16,985 bases of DNA from Methanobacteriota archaeon. GTDB taxonomy: Archaea; Methanobacteriota; Methanobacteria; Methanobacteriales; Methanobacteriaceae. Positions 4,975 through 7,736 of the stretch are shown piece after piece (within the stretch, counting starts at the first letter, position 1; the number at the start of each line of letters is the position of its first letter). The stretch lies in contig VGTM01000033.1 of assembly GCA_016874685.1 (NCBI GenBank), forward strand, positions 1 to 16,985, written 5' to 3'. A program made the position numbers and the translations under genes. The notes under the pieces are model-generated. The model was given only the letters and a program-made list of their open reading frames with translations. It was not told the origin of the DNA and did no database searches.

Positions 4975-5035
4975 GCCAAGGAGCTAAGAGGCGAAGCGGT
5001 GGACTGCATACATTAAAGGTGAGTTTAGATCTTCC
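4975..5035 (+). pseudogene. Degenerate partial copy of tRNA-Cys (5' half near-identical, 3' half decayed)
   Basis: GCCAAGGAGCTAAGAGGCGAAGCGGTGGACTGCA is near-identical (about 2 substitutions and 1 indel) to bases 1-35 of the intact tRNA-Cys at 7665. The following T-arm-like GGTGAGTTTAGATCT is degenerate, and no acceptor 3' strand is present. Confidence 0.6.
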
Positions 5036-5155
5036 TGTATGTATTCCTGAAAAACTGTTAGAATCTGCAAATATCAATGATGGGATTATGTAGAAGTTAA
5101 AATTAGGAAATTAAATAGAAAGGAAATAGATTAAAAAAATAAGGGCCGGATCTAA

Positions 5156-5737
5156 ATGGATAATATCGAAATTAGAAGAAAAATCTTAGAAAAATTGTAT
5201 GATACTGAAAAGATAAATCCTGGAAACATAATATCAAGTATTGACCTTGGTAACGAATTAAATATTTCTAATGAAGATTTAGGATTTAATATTAAATATT
5301 TAAAGGAAAAACAGTTTATTAATGCCGAGCAAATGGCTACTCCATTCTATTCCGCTCTTTTAAGCATTGCTCCCTATGGTATCGATATAGTTGAAGATGA
5401 AAATGAATTTAATAGAAGTTTTCCTTTAATGAATATAACAAATATTCGCAATAGTAAAGGCGTGGTAATAAATTCCGATAACGTTAAGATTGATATCAGT
5501 GAAAATATCAACATAAAAGACAGTTTTAATGAAATATATAATGAAATTGATAATCATATTAATGCAAAAGAAGTTGAACAACGAATTAAAGCAATTGAAG
5601 AAGAATTAAGCAAGGATAAAATTAGTACATCTAAAATAAAAGAATCCACAAACTGGCTTCATAAAAATGCTAATTGGACTATACTTCCATTAATTCAGAT
5701 TTTTCTTAGTTTATATGGGCTCACTTTACCTCGTTAA
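5156..5737 (+). CDS. Hypothetical protein: N-terminal winged-helix-like segment, C-terminal transmembrane anchor
   Basis: ORF of 193 aa with ATG 5156. The N-terminus IRRKILEKLYD...SSIDLGNELNISNEDLGFNIKYLKEKQFI has a wHTH-like pattern. The final 25 aa are hydrophobic (WTILPLIQIFLSLYGLTL). Confidence 0.5.
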   Translation: MDNIEIRRKILEKLYDTEKINPGNIISSIDLGNELNISNEDLGFNIKYLKEKQFINAEQMATPFYSALLSIAPYGIDIVEDENEFNRSFPLMNITNIRNSKGVVINSDNVKIDISENINIKDSFNEIYNEIDNHINAKEVEQRIKAIEEELSKDKISTSKIKESTNWLHKNANWTILPLIQIFLSLYGLTLPR

Positions 5738-5814
5738 AAAAAGAGAAATAATTTAAATTATCTTTTATAGGACATTGCTCTGTAAATCTGTTTTACATAG
5801 TTTCTTAAGATTAT

Positions 5815-7359
5815 CTATTCTTTACTTCTTTTTTCTATTCCTTTTTGAACTTCAACAGCTTTCTTTCCAATTTCTTTTATAAAATAATGTATTACTTTCA
5901 TTTGAGTTAAGCTTTCAAAATCAGGTTTAAAGCTCAATAAACAATTAGTGACATGCATTAAAGAAATAGCTGTATTTTGAAGTGGATCTGCAAGACCATA
6001 ATTTGAAGCTCCAATATGCAAAATCTTATTCTGAGAATCATCCATTAATCCCATACTATGAAAGCCTCTGGAACTTCCATGAACATGTGCTGATGATAAT
6101 TTATAAAATGGACGTAACCTATCAAGCCCTATATATCCCTCTAAACCTCTAAAAGACCGATCCAATCCTTTAAAGTTAGGTATCCATCCATTATCTCCAT
6201 AATAATCACTACCATATTTATTACATAGATAATCCTTTCTTTCTTTCAGTTTATCCAAAGTTTCTTTTTTATGTGGAGCATAGCCTAATTTTTCACACTG
6301 TTCTTGATAAATCAAGGCTTCTTTGTATCTCATTATACTTTCATGTTCTAAATATCTTTGAGAAACAATATTATCATTATCTGATAAAAAAATGGAAATC
6401 ACTGCAAGTTCATGTAAACTTCTCCATCTAGCATTAGCACCATTAGGATATCCTGCCTTTAATAATGTGAGAGCTTCATTACTTATTTGCAAAGCCCTAG
6501 CATGAATTCTAATAAGAGTATTAAACTTAATATCTTCTCTAAAACCTTTTTGGGTAACTTTTTTTCTGTGATTATCAACTGAATCCAATGAAACCCTAAT
6601 TAAACACTCTAATAAATCTAAGGGTTCTTCCCAGTCTTTATATAAAATAGACTCAAATTCCTCTCTATATCCTTTCTGTTCAGTTAACATCTCTTTACTG
6701 AGATCTTTAAATGATTTAAAATAAATTTGAGCAAGTCCAGGTATCAATTTGTTAGCAAGACCATTTTTTAATTTATTCATGTCTTTACCAAATGAAAATG
6801 TATTGTTTTTTTTAATATTAGCTGCTATTATTGCTGTCATTATTTTTGAATGTAAATCTCTGTCAGTTCGTCCTGATTTTTTAATTTCTTCTTTTTTTTC
6901 TTTTAGATATTTTTTGCTTCGATTTATATCAATTTCTTTTTCTAATTGCGCAATTAAATTAAGGATTTTTGGAAAATCACTTTGCAATCTTGCCTTAAAA
7001 TTATTGTAATATTCTACATCGATTTTTTTCACTTTTTTTTCATCTTTAACGTGAATAATTGAGTCTACATCTTTTTGGACATCTTCATATTTATTTTTTA
7101 TATTTTCACGCATATCTATTGATAATCCATATTCTTCAAGGTTTTCTGGAGTTAAATTACTAAAAAAATTGTCAATAAATGTAGCATAAAAGAAAGACTC
7201 AAATAATTCAAAAAAATAATTCTGTAGAATTTCTGATTTATCATATTCATTAAGCATCTCAACAAATTGACTAAATAATTCATCCAATTCCGCATAAAAC
7301 TTTTCAGTCATAATACTTAATTTATTAAAATCAATTAATATTTTTCCATTTTCTTCCAT
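5815..7359 (-). CDS. Large hypothetical protein with a K/E-rich coiled-coil-like N-terminal half and a C-terminal region carrying an Rx4H (HEPN-like) motif; possible defense/abortive-infection type protein
   Basis: Long open frame of 514-525 aa. The first ATG is at 7359 (MEENGKIL); the frame opens further at TTG 7392. The motif ALTLLKAGYPNGANARWRSLHELAV matches the HEPN Rx4-6H pattern. The gene has very low GC compared with its neighbours. Confidence 0.55.
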   Translation of the reverse strand: MEENGKILIDFNKLSIMTEKFYAELDELFSQFVEMLNEYDKSEILQNYFFELFESFFYATFIDNFFSNLTPENLEEYGLSIDMRENIKNKYEDVQKDVDSIIHVKDEKKVKKIDVEYYNNFKARLQSDFPKILNLIAQLEKEIDINRSKKYLKEKKEEIKKSGRTDRDLHSKIMTAIIAANIKKNNTFSFGKDMNKLKNGLANKLIPGLAQIYFKSFKDLSKEMLTEQKGYREEFESILYKDWEEPLDLLECLIRVSLDSVDNHRKKVTQKGFREDIKFNTLIRIHARALQISNEALTLLKAGYPNGANARWRSLHELAVISIFLSDNDNIVSQRYLEHESIMRYKEALIYQEQCEKLGYAPHKKETLDKLKERKDYLCNKYGSDYYGDNGWIPNFKGLDRSFRGLEGYIGLDRLRPFYKLSSAHVHGSSRGFHSMGLMDDSQNKILHIGASNYGLADPLQNTAISLMHVTNCLLSFKPDFESLTQMKVIHYFIKEIGKKAVEVQKGIEKRSKE

Positions 7360-7618
7360 CTTTACTTGAAATCTTAGACTGCCGAATACCAACTCTCAAA
7401 GTTTCACCTTTACGTCTGGCCCTTAAAAATTTCCTCTGGGTTTCTTCAATAGCTTCCATTAGGCGCATATATTTTGTTTCAGGCGAAATAACTTTATTGT
7501 ACTTAGAATGGCTATAATCAATATTAAATAAAACGACATTAGATATTTTTAAATATAAATAGGGTATAATTAAACCATATTTAAATTTCATTATTTTAAA
7601 AATTGTTTCACTCCACAA
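7331..7618 (-). CDS. Small ORF (95 aa, TTG start) overlapping the 5' end of the large Rx4H gene; possibly spurious
   Basis: ORF only, with no RBS. The first ATG is internal and the product is basic. Confidence 0.2.
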   Translation of the reverse strand: MWSETIFKIMKFKYGLIIPYLYLKISNVVLFNIDYSHSKYNKVISPETKYMRLMEAIEETQRKFLRARRKGETLRVGIRQSKISSKDGRKWKNIN

Positions 7619-7664
7619 GATTTAAATACCAACAATATATAATGTATTTAATGCGCTATGGTAT

Positions 7665-7736
7665 GCCAAGGTAGCTTAGAGGCGAAGCGGTGGACTGCAG
7701 ATCCATTACACGTGAGTTCAAATCTCACCCTTGGCT
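7665..7736 (+). tRNA. tRNA-Cys (GCA)
   Basis: Manual cloverleaf folding. Acceptor GCCAAGG/CCTTGGC, D arm GCTT-AGAGGCG-AAGC, anticodon arm GTGGA-CTGCAGA-TCCAT, T arm GTGAG-TTCAAAT-CTCAC, discriminator T. No CCA is encoded. Confidence 0.9.

Follow-up and report, generated by a model that had tools for sequence, protein, structure and literature searches.

A foreign two-gene islet bounded by tRNA-Cys sequences in an uncultured Methanobacteriaceae, with mosaic evidence that favours recombination in the tRNA gene's 5' half

In classical tRNA islands and prophages, the attachment (att) site corresponds to the 3' part of a tRNA gene (Williams 2002, as summarised in PMC8371274). In the pTN3-like integrases of Thermococcales, the att site is the tRNA gene's 5' half, and the tRNA becomes separated from its original promoter (PMC8371274; PMC5495485). 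These SSV-family tyrosine integrases are 'suicidal': the integrase ORF contains the att site and becomes split into IntN and IntC at the borders. The attP and attB sites of pTN3 have 41 bp in common (PMC5495485), and the 7-nt anticodon loop is the overlap region of SSV1-type and many bacterial tyrosine integrases (PMC8371274). The locus described here lies in a 16,985-nt stretch of DNA (the window), which is the complete contig VGTM01000033.1 of a metagenome-assembled genome of an uncultured Methanobacteriaceae (locus tags FJ150_048xx). It consists of an intact tRNA-Cys gene, a decayed copy of that gene upstream of it (called psi), and about 2.7 kb of foreign DNA between the two. A sequence-only reading of the window had noticed the partial copy and had proposed a decayed integrated element or defence islet between attL/attR-like repeats. 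The locus can be described as a tRNA-bounded, horizontally acquired islet of putative defence genes, and the mosaic ancestry of its working tRNA gene favours recombination within the tRNA 5' half.

The two copies are direct repeats on the same strand that bracket the insert, as had been read from the sequence. Psi matches tRNA-Cys positions 1-35 in 33 of 35 bases; the differences are a 1-nt deletion of T8 and the substitution T13A. A 22-mer within this block, AGAGGCGAAGCGGTGGACTGCA, is exact at 4987-5008 and 7678-7699; a search of 200 dinucleotide shuffles that tolerated up to three mismatches did not find it again. The similarity extends beyond the tRNA gene in the upstream direction. A 29-nt promoter repeat (4927-4955 and 7607-7635) is 79% identical and contains a B recognition element (BRE)/TATA core, AAGATTTAAATA, that is conserved in 12 of 12 positions; the same motif precedes tRNA-Cys in all relatives. 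Downstream of the near-identical block, two anticodon-loop bases are missing and a T arm follows (CATTA.A.GTGAGTT.A.ATCT, 18/22 identical, at 5011-5032). The local score of this T-arm relic was 14, compared to a maximum of 13 in 20,000 shuffles (p < 5e-5) and 12 elsewhere in the window. The full repeat unit pairs 4927-5032 with 7607-7725 (E = 1.7e-14), and the window contains no third copy of it. Identity between the copies falls into three blocks, 55% in the promoter and leader, 94% in positions 1-35, and ~70% in the 3' part before similarity is lost. Divergence rises from the 5' half to the 3' part, with Fisher p values of 0.017 (positions 36-65) and 0.0006 (positions 36-72).

Since psi has its own promoter and a T-arm relic, it is a whole-gene pseudogene and not a bare half-site. 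The earlier description of the duplicate as covering the 5' half needs correction in this respect. The rest of the copy is degenerate, as had been noticed, but homologous, with a T arm that is still recognisable. Psi cannot function as a tRNA because it has no 3' acceptor strand, gave no match in Rfam at E <= 1 or in ARAGORN, and does not fold into a cloverleaf (fold z-score -0.29). The working tRNA-Cys does form a cloverleaf (-23.5 kcal/mol). As a sequence that is homologous to an entire tRNA gene but has lost the tRNA structure, psi qualifies as a tRNA pseudogene. A split or intron-containing tRNA was considered and rejected, given the missing acceptor strand, the missing fold and the presence of an intact tRNA-Cys. 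An 8-bp inverted repeat, GCATACAT (5005-5012) and ATGTATGT (5035-5042), encloses the T-arm relic directly after the identity block. Among 396 tRNAs in 97 loci, psi was the sole sizeable partial tRNA copy; the idea that such copies are a recurring phenomenon was dropped, as the only other case was a marginal 18-nt match in locus L059.

How does this arrangement compare with the described systems? Like pTN3/TKV4-type integrations, direct repeats of a tRNA 5' half flank the insert, an intact tRNA would have been rebuilt at the distal end with the original promoter left beside an orphaned 5' half, and the identity block over positions 1-35 reaches the anticodon loop. By analogy, the topology of psi and the islet would work like a pTN3 integration. 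Unlike the pTN3/TKV4-type, the borders contain no IntN or IntC fragments, the rebuilt tRNA is preceded by a Methanobacterium-type tRNA-Cys promoter and leader instead of an integrase promoter, the orphaned copy retains a T-arm relic, the insert measures 2.7 kb without replication or mobility genes, and the host is a mesophilic Methanobacteriaceae and not a member of Thermococcales. Because of the absent Int fragments, the tRNA-type promoter, the T-arm relic and the 2.7-kb size, the islet is not filed as a pTN3-like element. The locus also resembles classical tRNA islands in that a tRNA gene forms one border, a direct partial repeat forms the other, and the cargo has an atypical composition; such islands frequently decay to integrase-less islets. 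In contrast to classical islands, the repeated segment is the 5' part and is found upstream of the gene, its unit includes the promoter, and the identity block is imperfect (33/35). A repeat of the 5' half had been called unusual, and it is indeed rare, with a precedent in the pTN3-like integrases.

The DNA between the copies is of foreign origin, which is evident from its low GC content, its low GC content at third codon positions (GC3), and the 74-86% nucleotide identity of its cargo to genes in unrelated contexts. GC drops to 0.23-0.30 over ~5000-7500. The two cargo genes, one for a winged helix-turn-helix (wHTH) protein and one for a DUF5677 protein, have GC contents of 0.268 and 0.274, compared to 0.32-0.40 in neighbouring genes, and GC3 between the copies is 0.16-0.20 as against 0.21-0.37 elsewhere. 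The low-GC island of the sequence-only reading is thus real, and so is its count of two genes, to which a single unsupported open reading frame (ORF) of 86 aa can be added.

The insert is absent from relatives. Scanning genomes and metagenomes with the adjacent metallo-beta-lactamase-fold (MBL) gene as the anchor yielded 160 related loci (designated by L and a number). The gene order tRNA-Cys, tRNA-Trp, MBL is kept in the Methanobacterium, Methanobrevibacter and Methanothermobacter loci in which tRNA-Cys was detected. Neither psi nor the wHTH or DUF5677 gene was found in the ~160 related loci, and every related locus with a detected tRNA-Cys had a single copy of it and lacked both cargo genes. 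The two arrangements that the earlier reading had named as arguing against an integrated element, the cargo genes next to tRNA-Cys with no partial copy and a tandem tRNA-Cys duplication, were both unseen in the relatives sampled. By MBL protein the closest relatives were L084 (83%; a 1.3-kb contig) and L004 (72%), with none of the 160 loci closer. The first 11.1 kb of the window are identical to contig Ga0194112_10011229 of Joint Genome Institute (JGI) metagenome 3300020109, and exact-protein look-ups matched only contigs that are 100% identical (the JGI contig, L003 and L173-L176), all of them from the same lake-type samples.

Evidence bearing on the mode of entry comes from the ancestry of the working tRNA-Cys gene. 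Downstream of the gene, the window sides with L004, its closest relative for the MBL, p318 and MPP proteins (73%, 65% and 75%). The Methanobacterium loci L006-L012 and L087 form a tight MBL clade (82-94%) that excludes the window (61-63%). The tRNA-Trp gene, located 44 nt downstream of tRNA-Cys, is 99% identical to that of L004, with the same short intron, and 85-89% identical to those of Methanobacterium. Likewise, the T arm of tRNA-Cys is GTGAG/CTCAC in the window as in L004, L015 and L024, and GGGAG/CTCTC in Methanobacterium. Upstream, the 62 nt before tRNA-Cys are 90% identical to L087 and 87% to L007 as against 45% to L004. Over the same 62 nt, L087 is 74-82% identical to its own clade-mates, which is below its identity to the window, and the similarity to L087 reaches to ~7577. 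In a neighbour-joining bootstrap analysis of the leader (64 sites), the window grouped with L087 and L007 in 73% of replicates and took the position expected from vertical descent in 0%. Apart from the window, only the Methanobacterium clade has a 36-nt leader with GCGCTATGGTAT at its end. The spacing from the TATA box to +1 is 36 nt in the working gene, 26 nt in psi, 25 nt in L004 and 25-28 nt in the outgroups, Methanobrevibacter and Methanothermobacter among them; including gaps, the promoter and leader of psi and of the working gene are 55% identical. Since the DNA downstream is L004-like and the DNA upstream is Methanobacterium-like, an ancestry break falls at or within the 5' part of tRNA-Cys. 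In other words, the working gene appears to be a phylogenetic mosaic whose break is inside the gene or at its 5' edge, and a break at this position is what recombination in the 5' half predicts.

How did foreign DNA come to sit exactly between two copies of tRNA-Cys? In the reading that we favour, and to which we give an even chance, a ~2.7-kb foreign insert recombined within the tRNA-Cys 5' half and orphaned the native promoter and 5' half. The crossover between this piece of about 2.69 kb and the chromosomal tRNA-Cys would have fallen in the 5' half, close to the anticodon loop. The incoming piece would have carried a Methanobacterium-type promoter, the 36-nt leader and a tRNA-Cys 5' half, along with the wHTH gene, whose product ends in a hydrophobic helix, and the DUF5677 gene. 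The exchange would have duplicated the tRNA-Cys 5' half and left the native promoter and 5' half stranded 2.69 kb upstream, joined to a non-functional 3' relic from the insert. The stranded copy, psi, which would thus carry the native promoter, would then have decayed by deletion of T8, the change T13A, and loss of anticodon-loop bases and of the cloverleaf. The working tRNA would be a hybrid in which an imported promoter transcribes a gene fused to the native 3' half, followed by the native tRNA-Trp and MBL genes. A recombinase may have acted in trans, may have been lost, or may have been needless, because Campbell-type homologous recombination between two tRNA-Cys sequences would be an equally good mechanism. 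A site-specific (att) mechanism is what we infer, together with the direction of the exchange and the enzyme responsible, and it goes no further than that because the decisive empty site was not found; homologous recombination or local duplication is possible as well. The appeal of recombination in the 5' half is that a single event explains the three-block identity, the foreign DNA between the copies and the foreign-looking promoter.

Table 1. Features of the islet, its two tRNA-Cys copies and the adjoining genes, in window coordinates.
Feature	Position	Strand	Remarks
psi, promoter and short leader	4927..4974	+	BRE/TATA core AAGATTTAAATA at 4937-4948; TATA box at 4941-4948
psi, 5' half (tRNA positions 1-35)	4975..5008	+	33/35 identical; near-identical block ends in anticodon loop
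psi, decayed 3' relic	5009..5037	+	T arm recognisable; 3' acceptor strand lost
Cargo gene 1, 193-aa wHTH protein	5156..5737	+	hydrophobic C-terminal helix; GC3 0.196
Cargo gene 2, 514-aa DUF5677 protein ('Rx4H' of the sequence-only reading)	5815..7359	-	GC3 0.163
86-aa ORF, overlaps DUF5677 start	7331..7591	-	coding status doubtful; called as a gene in the JGI record
Working tRNA-Cys, upstream region, promoter and 36-nt leader	7577..7664	+	Methanobacterium type; AAGATTTAAATA at 7617-7628
Functional tRNA-Cys(GCA)	7665-7736	+	ARAGORN and Rfam, 63 bits
tRNA-Trp(CCA) with 69-nt intron	7781-7919	+	Rfam tRNA, 41 bits, insertion after anticodon; native-lineage marker
MBL gene	7991-8611		3' of tRNA-Trp

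A number of observations weigh against recombination in the 5' half, and the first group of them concerns what the searches did not yield. The islet contains no integrase or integrase fragment. Pfam, NCBIfam and PADLOC detected no recombinase in the ORFs of 4860-7664. Integrase remnants, for which a search near the borders had been suggested, were absent from 5009-5155 and 7360-7664 when ORFs of at least 20 aa were inspected at both borders, and the ORFs that overlap psi or the working copy encode 21-61 aa, none of them integrase-like. The earlier statement that no integrase is present is thereby confirmed, while the attL/attR interpretation keeps its direct repeats of a partial tRNA but has no integrase gene or remnant next to either site. 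An empty site from a close relative was not obtained; the nearest relatives are 72-83% identical in the neighbouring protein, and the nearest contig, L084, is 1.3 kb long and begins inside tRNA-Trp. Synteny upstream of tRNA-Cys is not conserved among relatives, and the left-flank DUF3221 gene has no homologue in 5.8 billion proteins, which is why a true empty site was not obtained. Scans of viral contigs with the psi junction, with the leader plus tRNA start and with the tRNA 5' half returned zero matches, and plasmid and phage DNA included no carrier of islet DNA.

The second group concerns the promoters and the left flank. The flank proposed to be imported is a genuine tRNA-Cys promoter and leader, unlike the integrase promoter of pTN3, so that the donor must have carried a captured tRNA-Cys gene. 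The affinity of the psi promoter is ambiguous, with 29/41 matches to L004 and 31/48 plus a 10-nt gap to the long leaders, and no confident assignment to the L004 lineage was reached. The sequence AAGA is common to both window copies and L004, whereas Methanobacterium has AAGG, a hint that the two promoters are native to the lineage of the window. The incongruent signal of the tRNA-type flank is carried by only 64 sites, the approximate number on which the leader tree rests, and the string CAACAA.ATATAA, common to L004, the window, L087 and L007, may be ancestral and thereby give a false impression of nesting. The T arm of psi has the window-type GTGAG instead of the GGGAG expected of an L087-like donor. 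Finally, a Cdd1 and a DUF3221 gene lie between the conserved TM85 gene and psi, and in L013 the TM85 gene is 168 nt from tRNA-Cys, so that extra events are needed under any model.

Could the two copies have arisen in place? A local duplication of the promoter and tRNA-Cys unit (~110 bp or a larger segment), in which the redundant upstream copy decays, would resemble the way in which duplication-born tRNA pseudogenes form. In its full version it includes a ~10-nt deletion in the leader, a later foreign insertion between the copies, and a gene-conversion tract that refreshes positions 1-35. As in such pseudogenes, a promoter and gene unit is recognisable, its structure is lost, and the orientation is the same in both copies; the repeat spans the promoter and almost the whole gene. 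MAFFT can align the psi leader with the long one by opening just one gap of 10 nt, and the lineage-specific AAGATTTAAATA and the GTGAG T-arm strand are common to both copies. No recombinase is present, and both flanks of the working gene resemble normal chromosomal tRNA-Cys flanks. Unlike in duplication-born pseudogenes, the decay of psi is uneven, foreign DNA lies between the copies, and the functional flank is incongruent. Several independent events would be needed, including the arrival of two unrelated cassettes exactly between the copies as well as gene conversion. Duplication also leaves unexplained why the leader nests in Methanobacterium when the DNA 44 nt downstream is 99% L004-like, and the promoter and leader of psi and of the working gene (55%) are as distant as leaders of different genera. 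A tandem tRNA-Cys occurs in no relative, and a third tRNA-Cys relic left of Cdd1, which tandem accretion would predict, was not found. The weaknesses of the leader signal and the features of psi nevertheless keep local duplication in contention as the main rival, doubtful as it is.

It is improbable that psi came in as a passenger pseudogene. In that case the working tRNA-Cys and its long leader would be wholly native, and illegitimate recombination would have placed foreign DNA that carried a tRNA-Cys fragment of a previous host immediately before the native promoter. The psi leader does differ from that of the working copy in both length and sequence, and the 5'/3' heterogeneity becomes marginal (p ~0.02-0.04) if the 2-nt gap is counted as one event and the end as a truncation. 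Cdd1 and DUF3221 on the left of psi have an atypical GC3 of 0.37 and no homologues, so psi may sit in a larger foreign patch. Yet the arrival of a tRNA-Cys fragment beside tRNA-Cys in the same orientation needs a coincidence, and an insertion guided by homology would amount to the recombination favoured here. The passenger model further requires a secondary loss of the long leader in L004 and ignores the nesting of the window leader with L087 and L007. A present-day function of psi, as a strong tRNA-type promoter driving the wHTH gene that comes next on the same strand or as a tRNA-half-like RNA tied to the neighbouring putative RNase, is very improbable even though the BRE/TATA core is conserved at 12/12 amid diverged surroundings and conservation is higher in the 5' half than in the 3' part, because no tRNA or tRNA fragment lies near the two other wHTH homologues or the DUF5677 homologues, because psi already has a deletion and a substitution in its conserved half, and because such a function would explain maintenance and not origin and is compatible with any other model.

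What does the islet encode? The wHTH gene starts 181 nt downstream of psi on the same strand. Its product had been described as a wHTH protein with a transmembrane segment, which agrees with a winged-helix model and a hydrophobic C-terminal helix. Residues 1-72 of the AlphaFold2 model score 75-86 in the predicted local distance difference test and show a helix-helix-helix-strand-strand topology, and the top 50 PDB hits in Foldseek were almost all MarR/ArsR/PadR-type regulators (prob 1.00, E from 3e-3, ~85 residues). The N-terminal ~75 residues are predicted by this model to form a MarR/ArsR-like winged helix. No Pfam family matched the protein at the sequence level, and PADLOC gave only weak, chance-level hits (E >= 0.007). 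There were only two database homologues. One of them, in L168 (Methanobacterium sp. GCA_030539815.1), is 48% identical and lies 27 nt after a gene for a 320-aa TIR-domain protein on the same strand, followed by a PIN_8 gene (region 9012-10558); the TIR and wHTH genes of L168 are a possible two-gene module. The other, in L170, adjoins an EVE/NmeDI_C gene.

The DUF5677 protein is a full-length member of PF18928; residues 292-452 of its 525-aa ORF translation match the family model with E = 6e-25 and 88.7 bits, above the gathering score of 27.1. More than 250 homologues with 40-79% identity over the full length are spread over many archaeal and bacterial phyla, and further members are carried by plasmids of haloarchaea and bacteria and by Bacillus phage SPR. 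The Rx4H motif of the sequence-only reading corresponds to R311-x4-H316. In the alignment H286, R288, E295, R311, W312, R313 and H427 never vary, and 31/35 sequences have H316. A HEPN fold could not be confirmed for this protein, and it matched no PADLOC defence-system model. The 86-aa ORF had no match in Pfam, NCBIfam or PADLOC and no tblastn homologue in any fetched locus, and it is not integrase-like.

Homologues of the cargo reside in defence islands. Restriction-modification genes were present in all four long-contig DUF5677 contexts that were read. Together these four contexts contain type I and MmeI-type restriction-modification, Mrr, two TIR, AbiTii and Lon-like protease genes, and one of them has a faint integrase-like gene 3.5 kb away. 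The window's protein thus belongs to a family whose homologues lie beside type I/type IIG restriction-modification, Mrr, TIR, AbiTii and Lon-like genes. In L166 (4534-9329), two divergent DUF5677 paralogues flank an Eco57I/TaqI_C-type gene, and the island also includes EMARD_N/DUF7380, two TIR proteins and a type I restriction-modification system. DUF5677 has been reported to be enriched near serine recombinases in defence contigs; in the same Enterococcus preprint a single DUF5677 ORF was tested and was not among the five protective ORFs named (PMC12632615). By analogy with these contexts, the wHTH and DUF5677 genes most likely serve anti-virus defence.

Do the two cargo genes belong together? 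Unlike in most of the DUF5677 contexts examined, the DUF5677 gene of the window is convergent with a wHTH gene. L167 has the same convergent arrangement with a wHTH homologue that is 36% identical at the N-terminus, and the pairing is missing from the other four DUF5677 contexts examined (L164, L165, L166 and L172). The nucleotide similarity of DUF5677 to other loci is confined to 5791-7381, that is, it ends within ~25 nt of the ORF, which indicates that the gene travels as a single-gene unit. Judged from such comparisons, the two genes appear to behave as independent single-gene cassettes and not as parts of one recognisable element. The earlier proposal of a decayed element or defence islet is partly supported, by the direct repeats, the foreign, defence-type cargo and the mosaic; the missing integrase trace and the independence of the genes lend no support to a single recognisable element.

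The tRNA-Cys/tRNA-Trp/MBL locus draws other accessory DNA as well. In L029 (Methanobrevibacter sp. DSM 116169, NZ_CP166990.1; 3000-10000), a 7-kb insertion lies between tRNA-Trp and MBL. It encodes a DACNG/DACNH/DAC sensor diadenylate cyclase, a DUF2326 protein and a weak match to CTD10 (ABC-3C) below the Pfam cut-off, and it represents a different conflict-system islet on the other side of the tRNAs; a comparable gap of 3.9 kb is present in L103. In the window, a 4.4-kb insertion (8714-13123) separates MBL from a conserved 318-aa gene and is absent from L084, which comes from the same sample. Its boundaries are direct repeats (95%, ~210-227 nt; 8714-8940 and 12870-13096) that resemble miniature inverted-repeat transposable elements (MITEs). 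Inverted repeats of 18-20 nt, ATTTAGGCTCTGTAGAAA, in turn enclose each copy, an arrangement reminiscent of two MITEs that make up a composite element. The cargo of this insertion comprises two C39-peptidase-like proteins with Trp-rich tails (9444-10076 and 11514-12722) and three paralogous membrane-anchored proteins of 152-160 aa. A 26-nt AT-rich motif, ATATTTAAATTTCATTATT, located at 7577-7602 on the left edge of the L087-like region, recurs with 24/26 matches at L084 885-910, the empty insertion site of this MITE-flanked island; the recurrence may be due to chance or to a preferred target.

Directly left of psi, the Cdd1-family (PF11731) and DUF3221 genes (4241-4852) have the highest GC3 in the window (0.37) and may have been acquired separately at an earlier time. 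The idea of a hot spot between TM85 and tRNA-Cys was considered and rejected, as housekeeping genes occupy this interval in L007, L087 and L011. The 69-nt intron of tRNA-Trp contains C-box (ATGATGA) and D-box (CTGA) motifs, which is the known euryarchaeal arrangement of a tRNA-Trp intron that encodes a box C/D guide RNA; in Methanobacterium the intron is 8-9 nt longer than in the window and L004. Further to the left, a gene of the phosphoenolpyruvate (PEP)-mutase/isocitrate-lyase family (1375-2225) is split into adjacent ORFs at 1375-1827 and 1884-2225. The same two-piece pattern is found in L013 and L015, and it may reflect a conserved split or recoding and not a fresh pseudogene.

Entry of foreign DNA through the 5' half of a tRNA gene has so far been documented only for the pTN3-like elements of Thermococcales. 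If recombination in the tRNA-Cys 5' half is the correct reading, a mesophilic methanogen would represent a second archaeal lineage in which foreign DNA enters in this manner. The incoming DNA would bring a genuine tRNA promoter with it, and an essential single-copy tRNA-Cys would be transcribed from imported DNA. If local duplication is correct, the locus would be an ordinary tRNA pseudogene beside an ordinary gene gain. One speculative and unlikely extension is that Methanobacteriaceae harbour integrase-less mini-cassettes of ~2.7 kb, each composed of one or two defence genes and a promoter, leader and 5' half captured from a tRNA gene. Insertion via the tRNA-Cys 5' half, by host homologous recombination or with a recombinase acting in trans, would replace the tRNA promoter. 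These cassettes would mirror the usual 3'-end tRNA islands and would let single defence genes move from one genus to another. The locus also offers a concrete example of how small integrase-less islets of putative defence genes, here DUF5677 and wHTH, accumulate beside the tRNA-Cys/tRNA-Trp pair.

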